NCBI GenBank assembly: GCA_003345545.1
Contig: PRDH01000041.1
Location: 1 to 27,679, forward strand
Length of the DNA stretch: 27,679 bases
Direction: 5' to 3'
Origin: Candidatus Thorarchaeota archaeon
Lineage (GTDB): Archaea; Asgardarchaeota; Thorarchaeia; Thorarchaeales; Thorarchaeaceae
Part shown: piece after piece, positions 12,267-27,678 of the stretch
Layout of the letters: the number at the start of each line of letters is the position of its first letter
Position numbering within the stretch: the stretch's first letter is position 1
Position numbers and translations under genes: made by a program
The notes under the pieces: model-generated
Database searches by the model: none
What the model was told of the DNA's origin: nothing
What the model saw: the letters and a program-made list of their open reading frames with translations, nothing else

Positions 12267-13598
12267 TCACTTCAGATTATGTTTCTTCACAAACTCGGTC
12301 AAGACATCCACAAGGTCCGGTTTCCCGATCTCCTGCAAGTTATATCTGACTCTGACACTAGGCTTGGTGATTTTGACTACGCGATTCAGGTCAATCGGTG
12401 TCCCGATTACCACTGCATCCACATCCGAGTTATTGATGGTTTCTTGGAGTTCAGAGATCTGCTTCTTGCCGTACCCCATTGCGGGAAGAACATTCTCAAG
12501 ATGACCGTATTTCTCGAAAGTGTCTCTGATACTTCCAACAGCAAACGGCCTTGGATCCACAATTATGGCTCCGGCCTTCCTTGCAGCTATGAACCCAGCA
12601 CCATAGGGCATCTCCCCGTGCGTTACGGTGGGTCCGTCCTCTACTACAATGACTCTTTTTCCGCGAATCGATTCCATCTTTTCGATTATGAGGGGTGATG
12701 CTCCATCGATGATGATTGCCCTGGGGTTTACGGCCACAATATTCTCTCTAATCTCTTCCACATTCTCATAGTCTGCAGTGTCAATCTTGTTGATGATAAC
12801 TACATCCGCCATCCTAAGGTTTGTTTCGCCTGGGTAGTATGATACTTCGTGACCGGGCCTGTGAGCATCAGTGATGACAATGAGTAGGTCTGGCTTGTAG
12901 AACGAGAAGTCGTTGTTTCCTCCATCCCATGTGATGACATCCGCTTCTTTTTCTGCCTGTTCAAGAATCTTGCCATAGTCTACTCCCGCGTAGAGAATGA
13001 CTCCCATATTGATCATGGGCTCGTACTCCTCACGTTCCTCTATCGTGCACCTGTACTTGTCCATGTCCTCTAGGTTCTCATACCTCTGTGCAATCTGCGT
13101 TGTCAGGTCTGGATCATATGGCATCGGATGCCTGATGTTGACTGGTTTGAGACCCATATCCACTAGAATCTGATTCACGCGTCTTGAGGTCTGGCTCTTA
13201 CCACAACCTGTCCGGACAGCACAGATTGCTACAACTGGCTTCTTGCTCTTCATCGAAGTCGTCTTCGGCCCCATGAAACGAATATCAGGGCCGAGCTTAT
13301 TGACCCAAGCTATCTTGTGACCAACCACCTCATATGGAAGATCCGAATAGGCGAGAATACACTGCTCAACATCGAACTTCTTGACTAGTTCGGGTAGTTT
13401 TCCTTCAGGATATATCTTGATACCCTTTGGATAGAGTGGCCCTGCAAGTTCTGGAGGGTACATTCGATCTCCAATTCCGGGGATTTGTTCAGCAGTGAAG
13501 GCCACAACCTCATAGTCTTCGTTATTTCGGAAGTAGACATTGAAGTTATGGAAGTCGCGACCAGCGGCGCCCATGATGATTACTTTCTTCTTGCTCAT
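12267..13598 (-). CDS. COG2403 P-loop protein (cyclic 2,3-diphosphoglycerate synthetase-like / arginine synthetase-like)
   Basis: KKVIIMGAAGRDFHNFN, AVRTGCGKSQTS (P-loop), RHPMPY, TIEEREEYE, WDGGNND, VEDGPTVTHG, LPAMGY. ATG 13598 follows GGAGTGG. Confidence 0.88.
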   Translation of the reverse strand: MSKKKVIIMGAAGRDFHNFNVYFRNNEDYEVVAFTAEQIPGIGDRMYPPELAGPLYPKGIKIYPEGKLPELVKKFDVEQCILAYSDLPYEVVGHKIAWVNKLGPDIRFMGPKTTSMKSKKPVVAICAVRTGCGKSQTSRRVNQILVDMGLKPVNIRHPMPYDPDLTTQIAQRYENLEDMDKYRCTIEEREEYEPMINMGVILYAGVDYGKILEQAEKEADVITWDGGNNDFSFYKPDLLIVITDAHRPGHEVSYYPGETNLRMADVVIINKIDTADYENVEEIRENIVAVNPRAIIIDGASPLIIEKMESIRGKRVIVVEDGPTVTHGEMPYGAGFIAARKAGAIIVDPRPFAVGSIRDTFEKYGHLENVLPAMGYGKKQISELQETINNSDVDAVVIGTPIDLNRVVKITKPSVRVRYNLQEIGKPDLVDVLTEFVKKHNLK

Positions 13599-13770
13599 TT
13601 TGAGTCCACTCCAGTTGTTGGTGGATTTACAGTACTTCGACCCATTAGGCAGGTTAAGTAATTGTTGGTCCATTCAACAGTGTAGAATGCACAGTGAGTC
13701 TAGCATTCTAGCACGACTGTGTGGGGACTATCGGACAGTTTTACTAGAATTGATTAATAGTGAGTATGCC

Positions 13771-13920: not shown

Positions 13921-14475
13921 TTGTTGAAGCTAGTTGAATTGGCTCTGGAGTCAGTCAGGATTCTGAAGGATGCAGGGGAGGCCGGTATCAAGAGCGACAT
14001 ATTGGCTCAGCGGCTCAATACTCCTAAACGCAGAGTGTATGATGTCATCGCAGTTCTGAAGGCTCTAGGCCAGGTGGATACAAGCAGAAAGTTCGATGGG
14101 ACAACGATTGTATGGATAGATCATTCGAAGGATTTCATCCCAAAGCAAAATCACGAAGAACTGCGAGTCCGGCTGAATCAAGAAAGTGAGGAGCGCAAGC
14201 AGTTTCAAGTTCAAGTAGCAGAACTAAAAGAGCAACTCAGAATCACAAAATCCAAACTCAGACGAGATGTCCAAGCTATTGAGATGGCAAATAAGACGGA
14301 GTTCCTGACGACACAACTTCGGGTACGTGCCCTATCGAGTAATGGAATCAAGAAGGTCGAACATTCCGGAATCGAAGTGCTCATTGAAACTCATGAATCC
14401 GGGATGGTCGTTGACCCGACTGAACTAGAGGTTGACGAAAACGCAGCTCTTCTGAAGAATCTGCAGCGCATATGA
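13921..14475 (+). CDS. E2F/DP-family-like winged-helix transcription factor with coiled coil
   Basis: LAQRLNTPKRRVYDVIAVLKALGQV...TIVWID carries the RRxYD signature, the following VL..(L/I)G and the wing W of E2F/DP DNA-binding domains. A heptad region (aa ~77-120) and a beta-rich C-terminus follow. Confidence 0.8.
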   Translation: MLKLVELALESVRILKDAGEAGIKSDILAQRLNTPKRRVYDVIAVLKALGQVDTSRKFDGTTIVWIDHSKDFIPKQNHEELRVRLNQESEERKQFQVQVAELKEQLRITKSKLRRDVQAIEMANKTEFLTTQLRVRALSSNGIKKVEHSGIEVLIETHESGMVVDPTELEVDENAALLKNLQRI

Positions 14476-14867: not shown

Positions 14868-14938
14868 ATGTCTTCCTCGGTGTATCGCCTTAAAATGTGC
14901 TGCGCTTGGTTCTTCGGCAAAGGCTTAATTGGACACAA

Positions 14939-16093
14939 ATGGTGCTAGATTTGGAGAGAACGAGACTGCCATCAACCAAGCTCAATGTCGCATTTGTTGT
15001 CGACACAACTGGATCAATGAAAGATGATATCAAAGCAGTGAAGGATAGTCTCTCTGAAATAGTGCGCCATATCACATCACGAACGAAAGACCTAGAGATC
15101 AAATTCGGAATCGTTTCGTATCGTGACCATCCTCCACAAGACAGGTCCTACGTGACCAAGTCTTTCGACTTTGCAGACAATGTGAAACGAGTCCAGAAGA
15201 TTATTGCTGATCTTCAACCGTCTGATGGAGGTGACACTCCCGAAGCGGTTGCTGATGGTCTTTTTGATGCGCGTACAAAACTATCGTGGGAGAAGGATGC
15301 CTACAAAGTGCTGCTTCTTGTCGGAGACGCACCTCCACATGGGCGAAAATACAACGCTCTCGGTGATGATTACTTTGCTGATGGCTGCCCAGATGGTCAT
15401 GATCCAATTGAGGAAGTCCAGCAGTTAAGAAAGGATTTTGGTACTGCGATGTTCATTTTCGTATGTGGCTGCAACCCTCTTGTTGAAACAGCATTCCGAC
15501 AGATTGCGGACTCTGTTGAAGGTGGCAAGTACTACTCGTTGTTGGAGGCGCATGAACTTCCGGAAGCAATTCTGAAAATACTTGAGGGAGTCAGTAACCT
15601 CATTGAAGCCGATAGGAAAGTCTTGTCCTACTACCAAGCTAATGATGGAACGTTCGATATGGGTGAGGCCGCGTCAAAACTCTGCCTTGAGGTCCGCGAA
15701 CTGAAGACCTCTCTATCTAGACTTCTCGAGCTGGGCAGAATTGTACGTTGGCCAAAGGGAAGACCTCTGGCATCAGAGCAAATCGGCATCTCTGTGAGTC
15801 TTGGTGAGATACCAAATAACATCGTCGCTGGAAAGGCCTTCAACTACTCTATCCGAGTCAAGAATCCAAGTGCGGCTATTGGGAACATCAGGGTGATAGC
15901 ATCACTCGTCACAGCTGAGGGCGTATCTGAGGTAACGAATGAAAGTCATGACATCGCAGCGAAATCTGATAAGATGCTCGAGCTCAAGCTCGTCCCGATG
16001 ACTGATGTGAGAGGGAAAGCAACGCTCCGAGTTGAGGTCTTCTATGGTTCAAAATCCATTGCAACTGAAATCTACTCAACACGTATCTATTGA
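14939..16093 (+). CDS. vWA domain protein (intact MIDAS-type motif) + winged helix + C-terminal Ig-like domain
   Basis: NVAFVVDTTGSM, GIVSYRDH, GGDTPEAV, LLVGDAPPHG. wHTH FDMGEAASKLCLEVRELKTSLSRLLELGRI. Beta-sandwich tail (FNYSIRVKNP..LELKLVP..LRVEVFY). ATG 14939 preferred over 14897. Confidence 0.85.
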   Translation: MVLDLERTRLPSTKLNVAFVVDTTGSMKDDIKAVKDSLSEIVRHITSRTKDLEIKFGIVSYRDHPPQDRSYVTKSFDFADNVKRVQKIIADLQPSDGGDTPEAVADGLFDARTKLSWEKDAYKVLLLVGDAPPHGRKYNALGDDYFADGCPDGHDPIEEVQQLRKDFGTAMFIFVCGCNPLVETAFRQIADSVEGGKYYSLLEAHELPEAILKILEGVSNLIEADRKVLSYYQANDGTFDMGEAASKLCLEVRELKTSLSRLLELGRIVRWPKGRPLASEQIGISVSLGEIPNNIVAGKAFNYSIRVKNPSAAIGNIRVIASLVTAEGVSEVTNESHDIAAKSDKMLELKLVPMTDVRGKATLRVEVFYGSKSIATEIYSTRIY

Positions 16094-17262
16094 TGGGAGG
16101 ATTCTCTTTGATTCTAATCGCCAAACAGGGACGAAATCAGAAAGGTCTCTGCTTTGTGCCAGCTGACGAACCTTCATGTGAACCGGGTGTCTACGAACTG
16201 AGCTTTGGGGAATCCAGACTGCTTGCCGATATACGCAAGTCAGCTCAGGTTTTCAATCGCATGATCATTCTGGATAGTCGTGTTTTCACCATGATGAATT
16301 GTGAAGATGGCTCGGAAATATCATTAACCAGAATCTGCGACGACTTGCCCATCTGCAGAGAACTTGGGCTTGCTGTGGCATCCAAGAAGTCCCTAGATAA
16401 TACTGCAGTTGCTGATGCGATTTCCAAAAGAGTCAATGATCTTCAAGAGGATTTTGACGGATTAGTGCTAACAAAAAGCCAGAAGATATCGTTGGAAAGG
16501 CTTGGAGTCCAATTCACTGTGGGCTTTCTCAAACCGATGGATGACGGAAACCTCTCTTGTCGACTAAGATGGAGCAGTCTAGAGAAGATACACCTTGACC
16601 CAGCATTAGAATCTCCTGCCTACAATCTCATTTGTGTGATTGAGCTTGGAGCAGCAGCCCAAATTAAAGATGTCCGGCAATCCTCTGTAGACGGCGACTC
16701 GATTTCAGTTTCTCGACACTCTGCTGCAATTGAACTTCTACGTCAGATTGAACTAGGTTACCCGGGATATGGCACAGGAGCTCAATTCTCAGGCATTGTA
16801 TATTCGGAAGAGGTAGCAACCTACCCGATGTTTGATACAGAGACAGGTGAACAGGTCGAGACATCATCGCTTCACTCGGGATCTATCTTGGAATCATTCA
16901 AAAACTGGGTTCGCGAAGTAGCTTCCACCCATGGCCGCAAATCCTCGAATCCCGGTGCCGCATTGAGTATCGCAATCGAGCGTGCCTTGAGCTTGCCAGA
17001 TTCATCTAATCACCCTACTATTGTAGTTCTAGTTTCAAGCGGTACCCACTCATCTGGCCCCAATCCATTGAAGACTGTGAAAAAGAAAACGGAGAACAAG
17101 TCTGTACCAGTCTTATGTTTTTGTCTGGGAGAAGATTCAAACAGGGATATGATGAAGGCAATTGCAGAGTACACAAAGGGAATTGCAGTCGAAATCACCA
17201 ACATGGGTCAGGTGAGTATGGTCAATGAATGGCTTATGGAGTGGTTTCGAGATAGGAGTTGA
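16090..17262 (+). CDS. Cdc48/NSF-N-like domain + degenerate vWA protein
   Basis: IILDSRVFTMMNCEDGSEISL (double-psi-barrel-like). vWA strands NLICVIELGAA, SNPGAALSIA, PTIVVLVSSG and VLCFCLGEDSNRDMMKAIAEYTKG align with 23085-24374 but lack DxSxS. Start may be TTG 16108 after GGAGG. Confidence 0.7.
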   Translation: MMGGFSLILIAKQGRNQKGLCFVPADEPSCEPGVYELSFGESRLLADIRKSAQVFNRMIILDSRVFTMMNCEDGSEISLTRICDDLPICRELGLAVASKKSLDNTAVADAISKRVNDLQEDFDGLVLTKSQKISLERLGVQFTVGFLKPMDDGNLSCRLRWSSLEKIHLDPALESPAYNLICVIELGAAAQIKDVRQSSVDGDSISVSRHSAAIELLRQIELGYPGYGTGAQFSGIVYSEEVATYPMFDTETGEQVETSSLHSGSILESFKNWVREVASTHGRKSSNPGAALSIAIERALSLPDSSNHPTIVVLVSSGTHSSGPNPLKTVKKKTENKSVPVLCFCLGEDSNRDMMKAIAEYTKGIAVEITNMGQVSMVNEWLMEWFRDRS

Positions 17263-18425
17263 TTCCTGTGACGGACGATTTGCCAACACGACTTCAGGCT
17301 ATGTTCCACAGTGGAGAGATTACTGAATTCATCTCTGCACAGATGCCAATAGAGAAGCTCAGCACGGGATGGATGGAACAAGGTCTTCTCCTCAAGGGCT
17401 TCACTGGAAAGCTGGAGGACAGAAAGAACCAAGAACAACTCATCATTCCTGCTGACAGATTTGCACGTTTGACAAGAGACCTCGAAGGCGTAGCACGACC
17501 ATTTGTCGGTATGTTGATCCTAGGCAGTCAAGGTTTAGTCACCCCCAAGTTATGCATCGTAGTATACGATACACTCGAGGAGAACAGCAAGCCAATGATG
17601 ACTGTGGCCTTCTGGACCAAGAACTTGGACTTCGCTGAAATCACTCGTATCATAGCACGGCATGTGCTTGGACATGGCTATTCTACTGGCGAGTCTGAGC
17701 CAGACTTGGATTATTTAGAACAACTTAGAGCAGATGTTTCCTCTGGTGAAGTTCGACGTCTTCTCTCTCTCAAGATTCCCGCAGAGAAGCAGAACGCCGC
17801 AGAATGGATCCGTGATTCCATAAGACAAGTGAATGAATCTGAGAGAGTAGTTGCGGCTGCAGGAGACGTGAACGGTCTATCGAGAATCACACTTCTTCTC
17901 ACTCGCTGGTTGACAAGCCTCGACGTCTTCAAGAGAGCCAAGAACAATATCGCTGCTATCCTCTTCAAATTCAGTGACAGAACAGAACTCTGCTTGTGGG
18001 ATAACCCTCATGGCATAGCTTCGTTTGCTACATTGAACGGAACCGACATTGACAGCATGATCGATAGATATGTGACGCCGCTGTGGTCCGGTTCACAGGA
18101 TCTTGCCGTTTCTAATGTACGTGCTCCAGAGGTTGTGGTCGGAAAGAGAGCAAAACCGCAAGAAGTAGACCGCAAGTCGAAAGCCATGGTTTCCCATCAG
18201 ATAGATTATAGTGTCCTGAGTCAGATTAGAACAAGACTGGAAGTGCTAGAAACTCGGCTTCAGGCCCTAGAAAACGCACCACGAGATAAGACAGTCACTA
18301 CTGACCAGTCAATAGCAATAGTACAAACCAAGCTTGCAGAAACGATTGACCGTCTTGAGTCTGCTGTGGTCAGATTGAGCGACCTCGAAGCGCGCATAAA
18401 GCGTGTGAGCAAGTCTGGGGGGTGA
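17259..18425 (+). CDS. Hypothetical protein: globular N-terminal region + C-terminal coiled coil
   Basis: Overlaps the previous stop (start possibly GTG 17268 after AGGAG). C-terminal heptads IRTRLEVLETRLQALE and LAETIDRLESAVVRLSDLEARI. Confidence 0.8.
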   Translation: MIPVTDDLPTRLQAMFHSGEITEFISAQMPIEKLSTGWMEQGLLLKGFTGKLEDRKNQEQLIIPADRFARLTRDLEGVARPFVGMLILGSQGLVTPKLCIVVYDTLEENSKPMMTVAFWTKNLDFAEITRIIARHVLGHGYSTGESEPDLDYLEQLRADVSSGEVRRLLSLKIPAEKQNAAEWIRDSIRQVNESERVVAAAGDVNGLSRITLLLTRWLTSLDVFKRAKNNIAAILFKFSDRTELCLWDNPHGIASFATLNGTDIDSMIDRYVTPLWSGSQDLAVSNVRAPEVVVGKRAKPQEVDRKSKAMVSHQIDYSVLSQIRTRLEVLETRLQALENAPRDKTVTTDQSIAIVQTKLAETIDRLESAVVRLSDLEARIKRVSKSGG

Positions 18426-18432
18426 TTAATGG

Positions 18433-18723
18433 GTGAAGAGTCATTCAGATGAAGCAATCAAAGAGCTAGGTCGAATCGAAGATGAAACACGCATTCTCGA
18501 GGAGCTATCTGAGCGTCTGAAAAAGATGGAACGGCAGATGGAAGACATCTCTTCAAAGCACTCGAGCACATCATCAATCGATGCTGAATACATCCAAGTA
18601 ATAGTCACGAAGATATCCGCACTGCGCGACCTAATTGATAAGGTGGAAGTGGAGATGGACCAGCTGGATTCCAGAATCGGTGATATCGAGTCACTTCGCT
18701 TCAAGCGTCGAACTCAGGAGTAG
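18433..18723 (+). CDS. Small two-segment coiled-coil protein
   Basis: Two heptad runs separated by an S/T-rich linker (SSKHSSTSS). GGGGGTG SD. Last gene of the 14939-18723 operon. Confidence 0.7.
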   Translation: MKSHSDEAIKELGRIEDETRILEELSERLKKMERQMEDISSKHSSTSSIDAEYIQVIVTKISALRDLIDKVEVEMDQLDSRIGDIESLRFKRRTQE

Positions 18724-21364
18724 AACTAGCTGGTACAAGTTCTTCAATGACATCGAGAATGCGCCCGATGAAGGTCTGTGAAGAAAATGAGTCCAACGGT
18801 GTGACTCCTGCATTTACTTCCTTCAAGAATCTCAAGGTGTCCGTAGGGGGTCCATCTTTCTCCAAGGTCACGAACTCGATTTGATATCTCTCACGTTCTT
18901 TAATAGCTTTGATGAATGGGATATGTTCCTCGTCTTCTCTTCCCACGCCCCCTGAGAAAACGAGTACCAACGTTGGCCGTGAGGCCCCGAAATCGTCAAG
19001 ATATTCCGCAATGGTTCTATAGGCCCCGGTCATGTCTTCTCGACCTGCACTATCTTTCACAGAATCGAGAATCGAGTAAATCAAAGACACAAGAACTTCC
19101 TCTGATTGAACGTCTCTGAGAAACTCCACATATGACTTGATCTCGCTACCGTGTTGGACGGAGAACTTTGCAGGTCCCTCTGCGAACGTGGCAAAGCCCA
19201 ACCTGCCCTCAGTCTGATTGTGTCTGAAGAGATTGATGACCAGCAATGCCCCCAGTGCCGCAATCTCTGATCTTGACGCATTCTCAGTGAGGTTATCAAG
19301 GAACACCCTCAACTCCCCTATTCGCCTTGCGAGAGGCTCAAGTTCTCTTGTTGCCGCGCGAATAGTTTTCAGTTTCATGTCACGTTTGCTCATGTCCTTG
19401 CACGTGGAGATACAGAGTACAACATTCAGTTCGCGAAAAGCCTGATTTGGTCTTAAGAACACCTCATCTTCTGGAATGACGCCAATCTGATCTGAAACGA
19501 GCTCTGGTTCTGTCTGTGTTATATTGAGAGTTACCGGAAGCTTCTCTGAACCCACGAAAAGTCTGGAACTGGAACCAACCAGTCTTCCTCTTATCCGGTC
19601 AAGAACCTCGCTTTCATTCAGATGGATCCAGGAAAACAATTCTTGATTGGATGTTTGTTTGTCTGAGGAGTACGCCATCACCATCCTTCGGATATCCGAG
19701 ATTTCCCCTTGGAACTTGACAATGTTAACAACTGAAGACGTACTGAACCCATAGATCTCTGCGTCAGTTTCTGAGATGACAATCAGTCTTTCGGCGCGCA
19801 TATCATGTTCTCTCACTCGGCCGGCGCACCATCTCCCAGTTCTTGTGCCAAGTGCTAAGACATAATCATCATTCGATACATTTAGCGATTCCATATCGGA
19901 AGAGGCCATAAGGAATACCCCGGGTCTCGTCCTCGCAATCTCGACTCCAAAATGAAGAGCAGCCACGAGTTCCTTGCGGTCTTCCACCTGGAGACAGGAG
20001 AGCAATGCATCATCAAATTGAGCTAGGTGTGCTGGCAAGCCAAAGGCGGGGCCGTCAAGTTTTGCACTTGCACGCACAAGGGTCTGCAGTAGAATGCTGT
20101 CCCTCTTTGATATGCTTTCTGTAAATGCCTTCTTCCATCCTGAAACCATCACGGCACCGTTCTTTTCTAGCATGATTGATATGCTTGTCCCTTTCTCGCC
20201 ATTTGGTCCGGTCACTGTTACAACGACGCTATCCAGCTGGACCGTTCCACCCTCGTCATCAACCATGTGGTCAACTGATACTACCCTCAGAATCTTCTTT
20301 GCATCAAGCAGTTGCAGCAGTCGAACAATCTCATTCATGGCGGCTTTTCCAAGACTCTCTTCAGCCATGACCGATGTCTTATTCTCCGTATATACTAGGA
20401 ATGGGGGTCGCGGAGGCAGTAATGATAACATGTTTCCACCAAGAATTCTCTGCACTTCCTCCGGCGAGGCTGCCAGATTTCTGCTCAAGAGGTAACTGAT
20501 TATCTCTGATACGCTATCCCCCAATTGCGTTTCCGGATAGGATGATGCAAATATAAGCCGCCTAGACCAGAGCGGGTCCTTTTGCTCACTCTTCATGTAA
20601 CTGATTGAAGTTGAGAGAGACGATATCGATGCGCCTGCCGTAAGGAGCCTGCTGTCTGGAATGTCAAGAAGGCGAGTGATGGATTTTCCCCACTCCTTCT
20701 GGCTTCTCACTTTCAGCACGAGTTTCGGAGCCGTTAGACCTGCTTCTTTGAGAAGTACCAACCACTCAAGAAGAAGATCCAGACTTTCTGGAGAGGCGAG
20801 TTCCATAAACACAGGTCTCTCAGATTTGATGATGTCAATCAGATCAGTCCGGTTCGGCCCCTTCAGTGCGAGAGGTAAATTGACTGAGCGCAGGATACAA
20901 CCCCATCCTTGTGGTGTTCTCCGGTTCTGCCTCATATCTTGCAGATGATATACTCGAGGGCTTGTGGGGGGAACTGTTGACCATCTGTAGACAGACTCAG
21001 TATTCGCATTCTGTTGGGCGACCGGGAGGGCTGTTTCACCTAAATCGATCAGTGGGTTTGCGACAAGAAGATCAACCAGCCAACTTGACTGAGACAACTC
21101 CGATGCATCGAGAGAGAAGTCGGTAAGAAATCTGGGCTTCTTTAGATAGTCATAAGCCCTTCTTGGAACGTACCTGAAGGCTCCAGAATAACCGGCAGCA
21201 AAGTCGTGAAGCTGATTCTCAACCATATTATAGTATGAGAATGCCCTGTCAGGGTCGAATGTTCGTATATACGTTCCAGCCCGTACGATGCCAAGTTGTA
21301 AGGATGCGTCCACAACAAAGAAGCGACGAATCTCGTTTGCTTCAATGTCCTCCACAACAATCAT
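18701..21364 (-). CDS. Fusion protein: inactive amidohydrolase-like barrel + accessory domain + Cdc48-N-like domain + degenerate vWA
   Basis: The N-half aligns with 21510-23015 (VVDASLQLG, WLVD, WSRRLIFASSY, YLLSR, VQRILGGN). The C-half aligns with 23085-24374 (NVVLCISTCKDM, SRSEIAALGALL, DDFGASRPTLVLVFSGG). ATG 21364 after GGAG; the ORF-track start is TTG 21373. Confidence 0.82.
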   Translation of the reverse strand: MIVVEDIEANEIRRFFVVDASLQLGIVRAGTYIRTFDPDRAFSYYNMVENQLHDFAAGYSGAFRYVPRRAYDYLKKPRFLTDFSLDASELSQSSWLVDLLVANPLIDLGETALPVAQQNANTESVYRWSTVPPTSPRVYHLQDMRQNRRTPQGWGCILRSVNLPLALKGPNRTDLIDIIKSERPVFMELASPESLDLLLEWLVLLKEAGLTAPKLVLKVRSQKEWGKSITRLLDIPDSRLLTAGASISSLSTSISYMKSEQKDPLWSRRLIFASSYPETQLGDSVSEIISYLLSRNLAASPEEVQRILGGNMLSLLPPRPPFLVYTENKTSVMAEESLGKAAMNEIVRLLQLLDAKKILRVVSVDHMVDDEGGTVQLDSVVVTVTGPNGEKGTSISIMLEKNGAVMVSGWKKAFTESISKRDSILLQTLVRASAKLDGPAFGLPAHLAQFDDALLSCLQVEDRKELVAALHFGVEIARTRPGVFLMASSDMESLNVSNDDYVLALGTRTGRWCAGRVREHDMRAERLIVISETDAEIYGFSTSSVVNIVKFQGEISDIRRMVMAYSSDKQTSNQELFSWIHLNESEVLDRIRGRLVGSSSRLFVGSEKLPVTLNITQTEPELVSDQIGVIPEDEVFLRPNQAFRELNVVLCISTCKDMSKRDMKLKTIRAATRELEPLARRIGELRVFLDNLTENASRSEIAALGALLVINLFRHNQTEGRLGFATFAEGPAKFSVQHGSEIKSYVEFLRDVQSEEVLVSLIYSILDSVKDSAGREDMTGAYRTIAEYLDDFGASRPTLVLVFSGGVGREDEEHIPFIKAIKERERYQIEFVTLEKDGPPTDTLRFLKEVNAGVTPLDSFSSQTFIGRILDVIEELVPASSTPEFDA

Positions 21365-21509
21365 CGTGTACAACTCCGAATGTAAAGAGCCAATTTGCAG
21401 AAGATGATATATGCCTAATGCAGACAGTAGTTTCTACTAGCTTGAAGGCTTGTAAAGAAATAGTTTATCACTCAAACAGGCCGAACACAAATGGAGGACT
21501 AATCTGTAC

Positions 21510-23015
21510 ATGCTCATCGTCCGAGCAGTTGAGGACCAGCCATCAAGAGGCATAAGGAAGGGTGATGAATTCAGGCTCTACATCGTAGATGCACATCACC
21601 ACATGGGGAAAGAGAAAAGCCATAGAAACACGCCTTCGGGTGCCTACGCCTTCTACTCCCAGCTATGGTTTGAGATGCAGAAGCTTGCTAAGGCCCTTAG
21701 AGAAGAGGATGCTCTTCTCTTCGAACCGATTGGAATAGCAGCTGGTGATTTTGCCGACCGCTGTTTCAAAAGCCAAAAGAGCTGGGAGCGGCTGAATCAT
21801 GGTTGGCTAGTAGATAGGACAGTTGTATTCCCCTATACTGATGACTATTCCACCCCCGAATCAGCCAATGAGCCTTCGTTCAGAGTATCAAATGATAAAA
21901 TCGCAGGATGGACAACTCGTGCACCACATTCGACGCGGCTAGTCGGATTCGCACGGGTCAATCCCCTAGATGGTGCAGGGAACCGGAATGCTGCTGTGGG
22001 TGAGCTCGAACGTAGTGTTCTGAGCCTCGGACTACGTGGCCTTAAACTGCACCCTCTTGCACAGCTCTTTCTTGATTCCATTGAAGGCGAACTGACAAGG
22101 AAAGTTGTGAAGCGAGCTGGTGAGTTAGGAATCCCTGTTATCTTCGATACAAGGAATATTGGCACAGTCATACGAATCAAGAGTCTTGTGGAATCGATAC
22201 GGAATGATCCCAACTGCGGAACAGCCATCAGGGGGCTCAGGGTGATTCTTGCTCATTGTGGAATGTCCCCTGGTGATCCACATCTCTTCGACGCGCTACG
22301 TGATCCGGCGATTTTTGCGGAAACTTCAACACTCCATGACCTCGATGTCCCTGTCCTGTTCGAATCTGCAATCGAGCGTCTTGGCCGACTTGGTACGCCA
22401 TGGTCGGAGAAAATCCTCTTCGGCACAGACTACAGCTTTCTGTCCATTCAGGCTGCTGATGTCATTCTCTATCTGCTCTCACGAAAATTCTCTGGAACCC
22501 TGACCGATGTTCAACGAATATTGGGTGGAAACGCACTGATGTTGGTCCAAAGACCCTTCGCAACAACCGGCGGAGCTCCAACTCCTCCTGTCGAATACGT
22601 CTGTCTGGACAATGATGGGTCCAGACAGATTCTACTGGAGAATTCGCTGCTGTCGCTCATCACGCAGGATGTCTGGGACCTCAGTTCTCTCGATTTAATG
22701 CTGCCTCCGAATGGAACTTGGCCCGAACTGTCGCCTATCTCAAGAGGAGGCTTCAATGGTGTCTATCTTGACTCCTACGTGTTGAGTCTAAGGGCGCGAA
22801 CGGGGAATAGAGAGATTCACGTCTGGATTCGTAAGGGCCCAAACAGCTCTCTCACTTGTTCACTCTTAAGTACGTCCGGGATGATACGACTTGAAACCAC
22901 TCAGAATGCGTCTCAGAGTATCAATCCCGTGCTAATGCGGTCTCTGAGAGATCATTCTATTGCATTGAAGACAGGTAAGGATTTACAGGATCATGTGTTG
23001 TCATACTTTGACTAG
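21510..23015 (+). CDS. Amidohydrolase-superfamily (amidohydro_2-like) metal-dependent hydrolase with C-terminal accessory domain
   Basis: IVDAHHHMG (HxH), LVGFARVNP, GLRGLKLHP, VILAHCG, KILFGTDY, ILGGNA. GGAGG SD. Confidence 0.9.
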   Translation: MLIVRAVEDQPSRGIRKGDEFRLYIVDAHHHMGKEKSHRNTPSGAYAFYSQLWFEMQKLAKALREEDALLFEPIGIAAGDFADRCFKSQKSWERLNHGWLVDRTVVFPYTDDYSTPESANEPSFRVSNDKIAGWTTRAPHSTRLVGFARVNPLDGAGNRNAAVGELERSVLSLGLRGLKLHPLAQLFLDSIEGELTRKVVKRAGELGIPVIFDTRNIGTVIRIKSLVESIRNDPNCGTAIRGLRVILAHCGMSPGDPHLFDALRDPAIFAETSTLHDLDVPVLFESAIERLGRLGTPWSEKILFGTDYSFLSIQAADVILYLLSRKFSGTLTDVQRILGGNALMLVQRPFATTGGAPTPPVEYVCLDNDGSRQILLENSLLSLITQDVWDLSSLDLMLPPNGTWPELSPISRGGFNGVYLDSYVLSLRARTGNREIHVWIRKGPNSSLTCSLLSTSGMIRLETTQNASQSINPVLMRSLRDHSIALKTGKDLQDHVLSYFD

Positions 23016-23084
23016 CTTGAACCTCATATTCTTTATAACAATACGAACAGATGAATTCACGTTCTACAAGAGGAGGCATTAGCC

Positions 23085-24374
23085 ATCACCAAGAAATTCC
23101 AATTAGAAATCGTGGATGGCGGAGACCTTAGGGGCTTTGCTAATCTCCATCCAAAGACTGCCGATTCACTTGATGCAGACATTGGCTCAATAGTCATTTT
23201 CGAGGATCCCCAAAGTAGTTTCTGGGGAGCAGCAGAGGTTCGAAAGAGCAATGATCCATCAGAAGGCCAGATTGTGGTTGACACACTTGTTCTCGAGGCG
23301 TCACTGCTTATGGAAGGTGATACCGTCGAGGTCACGCTATATGATGAGGACATGGTTGCTCTCGAATATGTTGAGTTTGGATTGAAACCCCTAACCGAGG
23401 ATGCCAATACAGAGGACCTAGTTTCAAGGGCTGCTGAGAAGGTCAGTTCACTGGAGAATATCATAGGCGGGCGCCTTGTTTACCCCGGAATGTCTTTCAA
23501 TTGGCCTGAACTTGATGTCAAGGTCGAGATACTCAATACAAGACCGACTCTCTCAGGAAAGAGCTTTGCAAAGCTTGCCTTTGAAGCTCTTCGGGAACGA
23601 ACTGGGTATGAATTCAAGACAGTAGGGATTGCAACTCCTTTCAATGCAGTGCTATGTATCGATACTAGTGGCTCTATGAAGACGACCGATGTCCCGGTCC
23701 AGGACATCGCTCATGCTCGTGAGGGTTTGAAAGATTTGGCTGGCGATAGTCCCGAAGTGCAAGCATTTCTGGGACGTTTTGAGGAGGGCAAGAATGTCAG
23801 CCGTGCCGAGGCTGCAGCAATGGCAGTGCTTCTCTATCTTGCCGAGAAGGTCGGTCGTGGCTACGGTGAAAAGGTTGGAGTAATAACCTTCGAGAAAGAT
23901 GTCAGTGAAATGACCTTTCTGAACTCCCAGACTGGTGAGGCTCAACCATTCGTAGAATGCACAGGAAGAGAAAAGGCACTGGGCCTACAGATAATCAGCA
24001 CTCATGTCGTGGACAAAGTGGAAGAGGGTGGAACGCTGACTGATATGGGGTCAGCTCTAGCAAAAGCTAGCGACATAATTGATGAATTTGGAGACCCCGA
24101 AAAGCCCACAATGCTCATCATGCTCACTGACGGAATGACGACTTCAGGTCCTCCTCCTTTGAAAGTGCTCAAGGAGAGATTTCCTGATAAGTCAAAACTG
24201 GTGATATATAGCATAGGTCTCGGGGAAAGAAGCGAAATTGATGAGGAATTGATGCTGGCCATTGCTCAGTATGGAAATGGTACCTACCGTCATGTGGACA
24301 ACATGAGAGACCTTCTTGAATGGTATGGCAAACTTGCAGGTGAATTTGCTGTAGTAATACGTGGCGCTGGATAG
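23085..24374 (+). CDS. Cdc48/p97/NSF-N-like domain + vWA protein with intact MIDAS
   Basis: RGFANLHPKTADSLDADIGSIVIF...EGQIVVDTLVLEASLLMEGDTVEV (double-psi barrel) and GRLVYPG...VEILNTRP (Nc subdomain). vWA: DTSGSM, T of GTLTDMG, LTDG, YSIGLG, IAQYGNGTY. Start extended to ATC 23085 after AGGAGG; the ORF-track start is GTG 23112. Confidence 0.85.
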   Translation: MTKKFQLEIVDGGDLRGFANLHPKTADSLDADIGSIVIFEDPQSSFWGAAEVRKSNDPSEGQIVVDTLVLEASLLMEGDTVEVTLYDEDMVALEYVEFGLKPLTEDANTEDLVSRAAEKVSSLENIIGGRLVYPGMSFNWPELDVKVEILNTRPTLSGKSFAKLAFEALRERTGYEFKTVGIATPFNAVLCIDTSGSMKTTDVPVQDIAHAREGLKDLAGDSPEVQAFLGRFEEGKNVSRAEAAAMAVLLYLAEKVGRGYGEKVGVITFEKDVSEMTFLNSQTGEAQPFVECTGREKALGLQIISTHVVDKVEEGGTLTDMGSALAKASDIIDEFGDPEKPTMLIMLTDGMTTSGPPPLKVLKERFPDKSKLVIYSIGLGERSEIDEELMLAIAQYGNGTYRHVDNMRDLLEWYGKLAGEFAVVIRGAG

Positions 24375-24381
24375 GATCAGA

Positions 24382-25530
24382 TTAGCGGGGCTCCAAGGCT
24401 TGAGCAAGCCCTTCGAGGGTCTCCAAATCCATTTCCTTGATCTGTTCCTCAGGTATTCCCTCCAACATCACCTCAGGAATAGAAACTAGAATCGCAGCTT
24501 TTTCCTTCCCGAATTTCCTCGTGAATTCAGCCATTCTGGGGTCTTCGGCTTCCGCTTCTGCTATCGGTTCTTTAGTGGGTTCTTCAACTGCCTTGCTGCC
24601 GCTTGTCGAAGCAAGTAGTGCCTCCAACTCCTCAATGCTGAGGGTCTTCAGTGTTTCATCTGATACTGACTCTCGAACTTCCTTCGGCAGTTTCTTGATG
24701 AGATCGTCGCGAGTTGGTCCTGGAGTCCTCTTCTTGACTGTTGTTACTTTGCGGACTTTGACAGTTTTCTTCTTCTTTGCTGGAGGTGGCATTGGAGCCT
24801 TGAGCTTGGAAACCAACTCTCTAGCAGATTTTGGGGTCAATCGTTTCAGGTCTTCAGGTGGCAGAGTAGCGATTACTTCTTCCGGCAGTTCAGCTAGGAT
24901 CGATTCCACATCTTTGGAGAGCCCAGGAACTTCAGGCTTTGCCTCCGAGATCCTTCTCTCTTCAGTCAAAAGAATGGGCGTGGCTTCTAGCTCCTCGACC
25001 AATGCGCTTCTATCAATCTCAACATCGAAGCTGCTGGATCGCCATCTAAGGAACCTATCGATGGCATCTGGCCTCATCTTGATGGAAACGAGCAGCCTGT
25101 TGATGCCTTCATCGGGCATGTCTGGGAAGTTATTCAGTATTGTATCGATATTGTCTTTGGATACCCGTGCCCATATTGGCCCATTCAACAGTCTTGAAAG
25201 TCCGGAAGCACAATGCGATCTTACCCACGTGTTCGGGTCCTTCAGTCCTTTCATAAGAACCGGAATTGTGCGTGGCTGATGATAGAATGCCAATGCTTGA
25301 GCTGCTGCGATTCTGACATCGGCAACATCGTCCTCCATGACCTTGGCGATTTCATTCACAAGTGCAGGATCTGCTGCCTCAATCGCGGCAATCAAAGCCC
25401 GTTCCCGAACAACATCCGATGTGTCTGCGAAAGCACGAATGAGAGCTTTCATCTCCTTCGGATCTGTTCTGGCGAGAAGCCCAATCTCGTCTGTATTGAA
25501 TTCCAATAACAGTCTTCTGGTTTCGGGCAA
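24382..25530 (-). CDS. HEAT-repeat protein with Pro/Lys-rich linker and three C-terminal helical repeats
   Basis: HEAT/PBS-type units DTSDVVRERA, DDVADVRIAAAQAL and DPNTWVRSHCASGL. TTG 25530 follows GGAGGA; the ORF-track start is 25548. Confidence 0.82.
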   Translation of the reverse strand: MPETRRLLLEFNTDEIGLLARTDPKEMKALIRAFADTSDVVRERALIAAIEAADPALVNEIAKVMEDDVADVRIAAAQALAFYHQPRTIPVLMKGLKDPNTWVRSHCASGLSRLLNGPIWARVSKDNIDTILNNFPDMPDEGINRLLVSIKMRPDAIDRFLRWRSSSFDVEIDRSALVEELEATPILLTEERRISEAKPEVPGLSKDVESILAELPEEVIATLPPEDLKRLTPKSARELVSKLKAPMPPPAKKKKTVKVRKVTTVKKRTPGPTRDDLIKKLPKEVRESVSDETLKTLSIEELEALLASTSGSKAVEEPTKEPIAEAEAEDPRMAEFTRKFGKEKAAILVSIPEVMLEGIPEEQIKEMDLETLEGLAQALEPR

Positions 25531-25728
25531 TGATTCTCCTCCATGCACTACGAATCTAATTCGTATAGGGATATAATTATCATGCCAGCTACCTAGCCAA
25601 CCCTTGTTCGCTCCGATATAGCTGCTTGCTTATATCAGTTCTCACTGTATATTTACTCTTCTCTGATGTCCCAATCCCTTTCCTTCAACCACATCAGTTT
25701 TAGGCATGTATGAGCGCCAAAAGAATGA

Positions 25729-26538
25729 GTGATAGAGGTGAAAAGAGATCCCGGGTACGAAGCCCTGATGATTATTCTGTTCATGGCACTCATGCTGTTG
25801 ATTGTTGAGATGTCCCCAATTCTCTCTGGGTTCTTTTCCGGTGAGCTCTACGAACTGGTGGCCACAATCACCTTCTTAGCAACCTTCGTGTTGATGTACC
25901 TAGTGATTGATGCCTTCGCTCGGTCAGAAGAATCGTCAATAGGAAGGCTTGGAATCAGCATTGATGAGACTACTTTTCACGACATGATTATCGGTGCGGT
26001 AGCAGGCACGATTGCTGCCTCAGTCGTGATTCTGTTCGCCTTCTATTTCGGAGGTCAACTACGACCGATTGAGCAAATGACTGCTGACCTGCTTGTTTCA
26101 GAGGTGATAATAACTGCTCCAACTGCGGTCTTTGAAGAACTTGCGCACCGCGGGTACATTCTCCCTCATCTTGAGAGTCTCGCAGGAAAGGGGCGTGCCA
26201 TCATTATCGGTTCACTATTCTTCTCACTCATTCATTTCAGCTGGTGGGCTACTCCTGGGTTTCCGGTGCACCTCATTCTGATCTTCACATTCAACATCTT
26301 TCTTGGTGGTGTTGTGCTATCATTGAGCTACTACTGGTCGGGCAGAAGACTCTGGGTGCCTATTTCCTTCCATTTTGCCTGGAATATGCTTGCGTATATC
26401 ATATTCCCAGTGTACCCTCGCGTTCAAGTCGTTCTTCCTGAAATATTCCAGATTGAATGGGGGCTCACAACAATTGCTGGATTCTTGATTGGACTGTCTG
26501 TCCTCTTCGGACTTCTTAGCAGCAGAAAGAGAGAGTAG
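25729..26538 (+). CDS. CPBP/Abi (type II CAAX-like) intramembrane glutamic endopeptidase
   Basis: FEELAHRGY (EExxxR), FSLIH (FxxxH), HFAWN (HxxxN) and multiple TM helices. Confidence 0.92.
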   Translation: MIEVKRDPGYEALMIILFMALMLLIVEMSPILSGFFSGELYELVATITFLATFVLMYLVIDAFARSEESSIGRLGISIDETTFHDMIIGAVAGTIAASVVILFAFYFGGQLRPIEQMTADLLVSEVIITAPTAVFEELAHRGYILPHLESLAGKGRAIIIGSLFFSLIHFSWWATPGFPVHLILIFTFNIFLGGVVLSLSYYWSGRRLWVPISFHFAWNMLAYIIFPVYPRVQVVLPEIFQIEWGLTTIAGFLIGLSVLFGLLSSRKRE

Positions 26539-26573: not shown

Positions 26574-27287
26574 TCACTGTTCGTGACCTATTAGCACGTC
26601 CTCAGGGCGCGAAACAATCATCGTCATGCCTATGATGTCCACTATCACAACCTTCTCTCCATTCTTTATCGGAGGTCCAGTTGTTCTCGCCCACCAGATC
26701 TCAGCGCCAGTCTTCACTTTGCCTCTTGGGTTGATGTCTGAAATAGCATGGATATCGGCGTACTTCATCTGTGAGTAAGCTGGCCATTTATCGTAGTTTC
26801 GAAGGAACGCGAAGTAGAGAGCCATCATGCCAATTACACTTCCAGCCATAATGTACACGGTCAGTTTGTTCGTTGGGTCTATGAGCATCGATAGGAATAT
26901 GGCAATACCATAGACTGGAAAGAGTTTCAGGGATACTTTCGCATCCATAAAACCTCCCTCCACAAAACTGCTGCCACCTGTGAACATCATAAAGAGAATG
27001 TACAGTATGGCTCCTATCACAAACAACATCCAGTAAGGAAATGTCACTGGCACTGGGCTATATATACTGGTCATGAAAATCTCCATGACAAAGAGGATGA
27101 CTACTAATGGAACTGTGACTTGGGCCATCGCCTTACCGGTTGCTGGCTCAAGTGTAATGACGAGCAGAGTCGTAATGACCGCGAAGAGTATCAAGCCAAC
27201 CAGGGGATCCACAAGGAAAAGCGTCATGACCATGCTCAATGCTGAGAACATGATCATGACGAGAAAGATCTTGATCCAGGCATCCAT
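26574..27287 (-). CDS. NfeD-like membrane protein (multi-TM + C-terminal OB fold)
   Basis: About six TM helices, then INPRGKVKTGAEIWWART..PIKNGEKVVIVDIIGMTMIV (NfeD C-terminal OB). ATG 27287 after GGAGG. Directly downstream of a stomatin gene. Confidence 0.85.
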   Translation of the reverse strand: MDAWIKIFLVMIMFSALSMVMTLFLVDPLVGLILFAVITTLLVITLEPATGKAMAQVTVPLVVILFVMEIFMTSIYSPVPVTFPYWMLFVIGAILYILFMMFTGGSSFVEGGFMDAKVSLKLFPVYGIAIFLSMLIDPTNKLTVYIMAGSVIGMMALYFAFLRNYDKWPAYSQMKYADIHAISDINPRGKVKTGAEIWWARTTGPPIKNGEKVVIVDIIGMTMIVSRPEDVLIGHEQ

Positions 27288-27312
27288 AATAACGTCCTCC
27301 AATCATAGATGC

Positions 27313-27678
27313 TTACTCTTCGGGTGATACCGTACCCTTGTTTGCGGGTAGCTTAAGCCCTCCAGTTCCTGCTGATATAGCTGCAGCAACCCCGGTAGTC
27401 GTGCCAACTTCTGGTATATTCGTCGGTACCATGATGATTAGGTTGGCGTTCTTTGAGATTTCCTGCATGATGTTCCATGTACGAAGGACAAAACCGACTT
27501 GTGACTCTTCATACCTCTTTGCAGCCTTGAGCATGTTGTCGGCAGCTTCTTGCTCTGCTTGTGCCAAGATGATTCTAGCCCTCCCTTCTCTTTGAGCCTG
27601 AGCCTCCCTGCTCATCGCATCCTGAAGTGCTGACGGGATGACTACATCACGGATTTCAACACTGGTGACTTTGACACC
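27313..27678 (-). CDS. SPFH/band-7 stomatin-like protein (C-terminal part; 5'-truncated by window edge)
   Basis: The frame is open to the window end: GVKVTSVEIRDVVIPSALQDAMSREAQAQREGRARIILAQAEQEAA, the stomatin signature region. Confidence 0.92.
   Translation of the reverse strand, partial: GVKVTSVEIRDVVIPSALQDAMSREAQAQREGRARIILAQAEQEAADNMLKAAKRYEESQVGFVLRTWNIMQEISKNANLIIMVPTNIPEVGTTTGVAAAISAGTGGLKLPANKGTVSPEE

Follow-up and report, generated by a model that had tools for sequence, protein, structure and literature searches.

Why would an archaeon keep, as one intact gene, a large protein that unites copies of two of its neighbours and lacks the metal sites of both? This question is raised by a locus of a Candidatus Thorarchaeota archaeon (GenBank assembly GCA_003345545.1), located on a stretch of 27,679 nucleotides (contig PRDH01000041.1, positions 1 to 27,679) that is referred to here as the window. 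On its minus strand, the gene for a fused protein of 890 amino acids (F) stands head-to-head with two plus-strand genes, one encoding an amidohydrolase (A) and the other a protein in which a Cdc48N-like module precedes a vWA domain (V) with an intact metal-ion-dependent adhesion site (MIDAS). We suggest, with a probability of roughly 60%, that F is a non-catalytic binding or scaffold paralogue within an Asgard-specific ligase-hydrolase-adaptor module, the ligase being a GCS2/YbdK-like protein (G). In the following, f1 stands for the family of genomes to which the window belongs and f2 for its sister family; other numbers preceded by G, L or P denote genomes, loci and library proteins, respectively. 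The features of the core locus are the following:

18701..21373, minus strand: gene F, fused paralogue without metal sites, 890 aa from TTG 21373, stop codon at 18701-18703
20384..21373, minus strand: F residues 1-330, (beta/alpha) barrel of the amidohydrolase type from which the HxH, both His and the Asp ligands are missing, assigned from hhalign to the A family, motif columns and the alternation of strands and helices in the structural model
19952..20383, minus strand: F residues 331-474, additional alpha/beta domain after the barrel, assigned from hhalign and the model
19439..19951, minus strand: F residues 475-645, module resembling the Cdc48/p97 N domain, with a double-psi barrel and a second beta subdomain, assigned from hhalign to V 7-170 and from Foldseek matches to p97 N domains
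18719..19438, minus strand: F residues 646-885, vWA fold whose MIDAS has degenerated, with S-T-C-K-D in place of D-x-S-x-S and FSGG in place of LTDG
21365..21509: divergent spacer of 145 bp between F and A, with GGAGG at 21494-21498 ahead of the A start
21510..23015, plus strand: gene A, metal-dependent hydrolase of the Amidohydro_2 family (PF04909), 501 aa, with a C-terminal extra domain, assigned from Pfam (E 5.5e-12) and invariant columns
23085..24374, plus strand: gene V, Cdc48N-like module plus vWA with intact MIDAS, 429 aa from ATC 23085 or 420 aa from GTG 23112

The start of F used by most of its relatives is ATG 21364, which gives a protein of 887 aa, rather than TTG 21373. The open reading frames of F, A and V and the spacer between them had been placed in the same way by a preliminary description of the window, and the sequence confirms them.

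F is a fused copy of two different genes

Pfam recognizes Amidohydro_2 in A and vWA families in V, and it returns no match at all for F. The kinship of F with its neighbours is nevertheless visible when single sequences are compared by BLASTP, in which F 269-411 aligns with A 298-451 (E 1e-8) and F 515-827 with V 38-356 (E 2e-13). Family profiles, built from 28 F, 24 A and 19 V sequences of related loci, align over nearly the full length in hhalign: F 4-414 with A 1-454 (probability 99.9%, E 2e-36) and F 484-863 with V 7-398 (probability 100%, E 1e-41). The collinearity of F with A and then V, which the preliminary description had proposed from pairs of short motifs, is borne out, and every one of those pairs falls into aligned columns. 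The junction, expected at residues 465-475 (about nt 19960), was found at about residues 472-478 (about nt 19950). Within the domain appended to the barrel, residues 331-414 match A 350-454 and residues 415-474 form a helical linker; similarity between the linker region F 415-483 and the tail of A (residues 455-501) was not detectable (E 0.11). F is, in short, a single polypeptide in which an Amidohydro_2 copy, consisting of the barrel and its appended domain, is joined through a helical linker to a second copy, that of the Cdc48N-vWA adaptor.

The relationship between F and A extends to details of the subfamily. An insert specific to the subfamily (GWLVD...W.T..P.S.R) is common to both proteins, as is an additional domain of some 100 residues on the C-terminal side of the barrel. 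A search of PDB sequences with the A profile yielded 3nur as the sole match (E 0.003). Positions that are invariant in A and lie outside its metal site are kept in F (D22, G28, W98, D101, N124, R140, W269, N314); through the shared D22, W98, D101, N124, R140, W269 and N314, F probably retains some of the surface by which A binds a ligand or partner. The distant F copies at L037 and L036 reach PF04909 only with E values of 0.004-0.01.

Both metal sites have been lost from F

In A, the metal ligands D-x-H-x-H (residues 27-31), His181 (in KLHP), His249 (in AHCG) and Asp307 (in GTDY) are invariant in 24 of 24 sequences, those of other Asgard families included, and the MIDAS of V, consisting of D184-x-S-x-S (DxSGS), Thr310 (an invariant column) and Asp340 (in LTDG), is kept in 19 of 19. 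The barrel of the window's F has S, L and Q at the HxH site, lacks the His ligands and reads ASSY instead of GTDY, while its vWA part reads STCKD and FSGG and is devoid of the conserved Thr. Loss of the metal ligands was established for the window's F and 38 others (28 F proteins from loci plus 11 further library representatives), and the MIDAS is degenerate in all F sequences examined. Relics of the ancestral barrel site persist as an HxH in L037 (Jordarchaeia) and as a single His in L036 and L038; in the Thorarchaeia F proteins, the strand bearing His181 is deleted. A profile search among 1.84 billion representative proteins retrieved 185 relatives (E up to 0.001), and among the fused proteins of about 830-900 aa checked in these library matches none had intact sites. 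The earlier proposal that the fused copy lost its metal ligands in an intact frame holds throughout this material.

F is a pseudoenzyme in the operational sense, namely an enzyme homologue that has lost its catalytic residues and is under purifying selection, and we infer that it no longer catalyses anything.

F is retained under purifying selection

F is carried in full length by 70 of the 76 genomes of the window's family (31-93% identity), and its relatives, with identities of 34-100%, form 114 clusters at the 90% level. Between the window and genome G103, the ratio of non-synonymous to synonymous substitutions (dN/dS; Nei-Gojobori) is lowest for V (0.024), followed by A (0.106) and F (0.139); the comparison of L004 with L050 gives 0.030, 0.117 and 0.122 for V, A and F, respectively. 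Hence, F is under purifying selection as strong as that acting on the active enzyme A, and the earlier view of F as a retained copy is upheld. V is the most constrained of the three proteins, with within-family identities of 80-89%, as compared to 48-64% for A and 32-59% for F.

An AlphaFold2 model of F, based on an alignment of 61 sequences, has a mean predicted local distance difference test (pLDDT) score of 88.6 and a predicted template modelling (pTM) score of 0.81, which suggests that F folds as one compact body; V modelled alone has a pTM of 0.61. In addition, a nearly identical sequence is present in wetland metagenomes of several independent studies. The notion that F is a decaying pseudogene, or an artefact of assembly or annotation, draws on the lack of any Pfam match to it and is refuted by these data: a frame of about 2.65 kb that is uninterrupted across over 100 clusters and in 70 genomes, dN/dS values of 0.12-0.14, a confidently predicted fold, and recurrence of the same sequence in independent wetland metagenomes.

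Selection of this strength could also be expected if F were a neo-functionalized enzyme with a new active site, for instance one that carries out a metal-independent reaction in the barrel, and a few polar residues are indeed invariant in F (D22, D101, N124, N314). LigI is a metal-independent member of Amidohydro_2 and provides a precedent of a kind. LigI keeps the conserved His/Asp positions, however, whereas F has lost them all, with even the strand of His181 gone from the Thorarchaeia proteins; moreover, the invariant positions of F are common to A and lie outside its metal site. We consider a new enzymatic activity of F very improbable.

F arose once, before Thorarchaeia and Jordarchaeia separated

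Full-length matches to F occur outside Thorarchaeia as well, and two of the families concerned bear the NCBI names Jordarchaeia/Freyarchaeota. In a tree of the Cdc48N-vWA parts rooted with another paralogue, all F sequences form one clade (Shimodaira-Hasegawa-like approximate likelihood ratio test, SH-aLRT, 93) and all V sequences another (SH-aLRT 99); in the tree of the barrels, all F sequences again form one clade (SH-aLRT 99) among the A lineages. The inner order of the two trees is alike, with the Jordarchaeia families grouping together and f2 standing beside the window's family. Since each half of F forms a single clade that comprises both Thorarchaeia and Jordarchaeia, the phylogenies indicate one fusion older than the class split, and they place duplication, fusion and inactivation as a one-time development ahead of it. 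Unrooted data are compatible with a fused-first as well as with a split-first ancestor.

Judged by these clades, F is not a copy of the A-V pair that adjoins it today. Of the ancient inverted duplication and fusion envisaged in the preliminary description, the ancient fused paralogue stands, and a local inverted duplication of the present neighbours does not. The mirror-image arrangement anticipated for relatives likewise has a limited range: among the families searched, the head-to-head layout of F and A-V is found in f1 and f2 only, and F is located away from A-V in Jordarchaeia and in other lineages, including L085 and L086.

A YbdK-like carboxylate-amine ligase accompanies A and V in other Asgard lineages

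The association of A and V with a GCS2/YbdK-like ligase, which is found in most of the Asgard families searched, was absent from the preliminary description. Outside Thorarchaeia, A adjoins G in seven further Asgard families, in the gene orders A-G, A-G-V and A-V-G. G resembles the ligases of the YbdK/GCS2 type (PF04107; PDB 1r8g, 1tt4), matching the YbdK protein of E. coli at E 3e-10, and differs from them in its size of 470-1230 aa and its large regions beyond the GCS2 domain. The window's genome encodes G (1144 aa) on a separate contig (C19), where a gene for a 236-aa coiled-coil protein follows it. A natural fusion of V and G is provided by the 962-aa metagenomic protein P0263 (L087:6001-8889), in which a V-type part (residues 8-409) precedes a GCS2-like ligase (residues 452-902). 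In the more divergent lineages represented by L085 and L086, F is transcribed divergently from an operon Y-Z-G. Y contains an Ig-like (CarboxypepD_reg) domain, and its C-terminus shows a weak EAP30/Vps36-like match (E 1e-5) that narrowly misses the cut-off. F is linked to the module because it adjoins A-V in f1 and f2 and is divergent from Y-Z-G in L085 and L086.

Several side observations concern these neighbourhoods. A-G neighbourhoods often include V together with a coiled-coil protein of about 190-260 aa. G was located at L043, L041, L044, L045, L069-L079, L082 and L083, and in the window's genome (G000) on contig C19 (L068:1815-5960). Y-type proteins of 550-784 aa head the ligase operon at L085:3500-5836, L086:3408-5762 and L041:11360-13015, and a 788-aa frame of the window's genome matches the C-terminus of Y (G000:C19:66902-67318). 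P0263 is encoded at a contig end in the neighbourhood of queuosine-type (QueC, QueF, TGT), TIR, SLATT and methyltransferase genes. Variants of the V family with 670-830 aa (P0213, P0241, P0220, P0190, P0271) possess two or three tandem Cdc48N-like domains ahead of the vWA domain.

Proposed role of F

In the module that we envision, F would act through the binding of a putative ligand or partner and serve, with no catalysis of its own, as a scaffold, sensor or decoy, while the active parts would be the hydrolase A, the adaptor V, the YbdK-like ATP-dependent carboxylate-amine ligase G and accessory proteins. The MIDAS adaptor V would hold an acidic ligand or a protein. The spacer of 145 bp presumably contains the promoters of both F and A, and in Thorarchaeia it probably regulates F jointly with the A-V operon. 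F probably also has a role in its own right, because it persists in some genomes in which A, V and, in two of the three, G were not found.

The tightest conceivable relationship is that F is an obligate partner of its neighbours, the dead barrel pairing with A and the dead Cdc48N-vWA part with V in order to regulate or position the active proteins. The head-to-head order with a common spacer throughout f1 and f2 agrees with such pairing, as do the occurrence of F in every genome of the window's family that has A and the conserved non-catalytic surface positions common to A and F. Three genomes that are 95-98% complete (G005, G016, G055) nevertheless keep F, and A and V were not found in them; F is not located beside A-V in Jordarchaeia, L085 or L086; and many Asgard families possess A, with G and often with V, and have no F. 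The three genomes with F and no detected A or V speak against a heterodimer in which enzyme and pseudoenzyme are obligate partners. F as an obligate partner is in our view unlikely, and the active/inactive heterodimers of the preliminary description are weakened accordingly. With regard to the bond between the two active proteins, a structural model of the A+V complex, computed with alignments of our own, scored 0.50 against 0.00 for the best control, on a scale whose mark is reached by 58 of 80 solved complexes and by 2 of 110 mismatched pairs and on which models scoring no higher than 0.60 are frequently wrong; at least 60% of the contacts are common to the runs, and the partners have pLDDT values of at least 74. 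This model lends weak support to A-V binding, and the complex of A and V that had been deduced from the fusion by Rosetta-stone logic has gained that much.

A binding or scaffold role within the ligase-hydrolase-adaptor module must itself be weighed against a number of observations that speak against it. The genomes G005, G016 and G055 keep F without a detected A or V, and G was not detectable in G005 and G016 either. In Jordarchaeia, F adjoins a divergent SPFH/Band_7 gene and an unrelated protein of 350-390 aa instead of module genes. F directly follows a HEAT-repeat gene in G005, G016 and G055, but this neighbour is also present in genomes without F, and phyletic patterns single out no partner of F. 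The loss of canonical ligands formally leaves room for a new and different active site. As to expression, four short identical contigs on F, A and V from one wetland metatranscriptome run provide a weak hint, and contigs of an RNA library, from which strand, ends and level cannot be read, possibly derive from DNA carry-over.

Pseudoenzymes and gene fusions are known kinds of proteins; F stands out because it unites inactivated copies of two distinct neighbours, one an enzyme and the other an adaptor with a metal site, and the fusion may serve as a natural pointer to the hydrolase and the Cdc48N-vWA adaptor acting together. Taken with the ligase linkage, it outlines an apparently undescribed, Asgard-restricted module of ligase, hydrolase, MIDAS adaptor and dead fusion, with about 185 representative proteins in 1.84 billion. 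For experimental work, it delimits four to six proteins that lend themselves to co-expression, structure determination and activity screens.

The HEAT protein was considered as a common partner of F and rejected, as its gene occurs without F. The 350-390-aa neighbour of F in Jordarchaeia was considered as the counterpart of the HEAT protein of Thorarchaeia and proved to be unrelated (hhalign, E 0.25).

Fold relationships of the Cdc48N-vWA proteins

Asgard proteins with Cdc48N-like and vWA-like folds bear on the origin of eukaryotic machines built from the same folds, such as Sec23/24, DEPDC5, Rpn10 and the p97 adaptors. Among these, DEPDC5/Iml1 provides the best structural matches. Foldseek searches of the PDB with V returned 9o5e_H (E 5.9e-11), 9v0j_C, 8fw5_A, 9xzy, 7t3a_A and 8ae6_W as best matches, over 415-456 columns with 13-14% identity, and the best match of F was 9xzy (E 2e-11). 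The N-terminal domain (NTD) of DEPDC5 has been described as NSF/Sec18-N-like and its SABA domain as Sec23-like (PMC8534245); V and F would share with DEPDC5/Iml1 the order of an NSF/Cdc48-N-like part followed by a Sec23-trunk/vWA-like part. NPRL2-like proteins have been reported in most metagenome-assembled genomes of Thor archaea, and a DEPDC5 counterpart was not reported there (bioRxiv 10.1101/2020.10.19.343400). The fold matches and both literature points favour the idea that V and the C-terminal half of F are the archaeal counterpart of the NTD-SABA part of DEPDC5/Iml1 (GATOR1/SEACIT), which would make them a platform for longin-type GTPase-activating proteins and small GTPases instead of components that modify metabolites or proteins.

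Several results speak against this idea. For the Pfam model IML1 (PF12257), the best match that the genome offers (E 0.3) lies at another place and does not reach the cut-off, and NPR2 (PF06218) finds nothing in the genome at E 1. The V profile reaches no DEPDC5 chain among the PDB sequences at E 10, the TM-scores amount to 0.26-0.28 at a root mean square deviation of about 15 Å, and the conserved neighbourhood is free of longin or Rag-like genes. The N-D1 portion of p97 is matched nearly as well (1.8e-9); therefore, the likeness to DEPDC5 may stem from a pair of widespread folds arranged in one and the same order. The two groups lack sequence similarity, V ends after the vWA domain (420-429 aa) and is without the SHEN, DEP and C-terminal domains, and it possesses a working MIDAS motif; the likeness is one of fold and architecture only. 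We regard a role of V and F as the archaeal counterpart of this platform as doubtful, and an evolutionary relationship of the Cdc48N-vWA proteins (V, its paralogues and the C-terminal half of F) to the DEPDC5/Iml1 NTD-SABA core likewise has the odds clearly against it. If the kinship were true, these proteins would supply the missing third piece of an archaeal GATOR1-like assembly, beside the reported NPRL2-like longin proteins of Thorarchaeia, and F would be a degenerate, enzyme-derived platform of the sort that DEPDC5 became. A search of the ESM Atlas features with V returned generic vWA clusters only. At L037, a 313-aa protein encoded 5 kb from F has a weak NPR2 match (E 7e-4) that overlaps generic winged-helix matches.

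Comparison with known systems

Within the Amidohydro_2 family (ACMSD, LigW, IDCase, LigI, LigJ), A is a regular member with all its metal ligands, which strand 1 (HxH), strands 5 and 6 (His) and strand 8 (Asp) contribute, and the N-terminal half of F shows homology to A along some 410 residues. F differs from the family in lacking every metal ligand and falling below the Pfam thresholds, and the insert and extra domain of A and F set their subfamily apart. Dead amidohydrolase-fold barrels that are conserved and act by binding, or as structural spacers within larger proteins, are known from the CRMP/DPYSL proteins and from the inactive DHOase-like domain of fungal Ura2/CAD. These resemble F in being conserved without metal ligands; in contrast to F, they are eukaryotic, belong to other families of the superfamily, and are not known to be fused to a dead vWA part or to face active paralogues.

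The Cdc48/p97/NSF N domain is matched by F 475-645 and V 1-170, both of which have the double-psi beta-barrel and the second beta subdomain. Foldseek comparisons of F and V with isolated p97 N domains gave E values of 7e-9 to 1e-8 and target-normalized TM-scores of 0.60-0.71 (0.63 for 4rv0_A versus F). Unlike Cdc48/p97/NSF, V and F have no AAA+ ATPase domain and carry a vWA domain in its place, and the Pfam model CDC48_N remains below its curated cut-off. From the vWA/MIDAS adaptors (Rpn10, TFIIH p44/Ssl1, BatB, ITIH, archaeal ArnB), F is distinguished by a vWA fold without a MIDAS, and both V and F by the Cdc48N-like two-subdomain module ahead of the vWA domain, a pairing undescribed for those proteins. 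A literature search on Asgard vWA, Cdc48, amidohydrolase or carboxylate-amine ligase architectures did not turn up a description of this arrangement, in line with the preliminary description, to which no such system was known.

Translation start of V and the relation of the A and V frames

V probably begins, on the evidence of sequence comparison, at a conserved non-canonical AUC/AUU codon. A GGAGG followed, after a spacer of 7-8 nt, by an in-frame ATC or ATT is found in 21 of 21 loci (the window, L004, L006, L036, L046-L052, L054-L063), corresponding in the window to GGAGG 23072-23076 and ATC 23085. Four codons past this ATC or ATT, at the start chosen by the gene caller in some relatives, ATG or GTG is present in just 8 loci; the codon at this position in the remaining loci is GTA, CTG, CTC, TTC, ATT, ATC, GCG, TTA or CAG.

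A and V of the window share a reading frame and are separated by TAG 23013 and TGA 23052; a split A-V gene, suggested by a 972-aa 'open frame', was rejected, as that frame reads through these stops. The common frame is seen in a minority of relatives only, and none of the longer proteins searched with A was a fused A-V, which is weak evidence.

Flanking genes of the locus

The surroundings of the core locus comprise the following genes, with the context of the last four conserved in relatives:

14897..18723, plus strand: three genes for proteins of about 390 aa and one for a 96-aa coiled-coil protein, convergent on F
24382-25548, minus strand: HEAT-repeat gene
25729-26538, plus strand: Rce1-like protease
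26574-27302, minus strand: NfeD
27313-27678, minus strand: C-terminus of SPFH/Band_7, cut by the window end

Of the tandem genes for proteins of about 390 aa, the first encodes a vWA domain at the N-terminus of its product, in which DTTGS forms a MIDAS-like motif; the second is clearly paralogous to V (hmmsearch, E 3e-24), and no family match was detected for the third. G016 and G055 lack this block, together with A-V, at their F loci. Genes of the SPFH/Band_7 or NfeD type are found near F repeatedly, in distant lineages as well (window 26574-27678, L037:4841-5857, L039:4150-5097, L064:3184-3906): the divergent neighbour of F is Band_7 in the two Jordarchaeia families, F directly borders on NfeD in G016, and NfeD and SPFH are found about 5 kb from F in the window. 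On the far side of the tandem block, the window contains genes for an E2F/DP winged-helix protein (13921-14475; PF02319, E 7e-8) and for a 468-aa protein with a weak CobW/G3E GTPase match (12267-13673), both of which are syntenic with the F-A-V locus in relatives.

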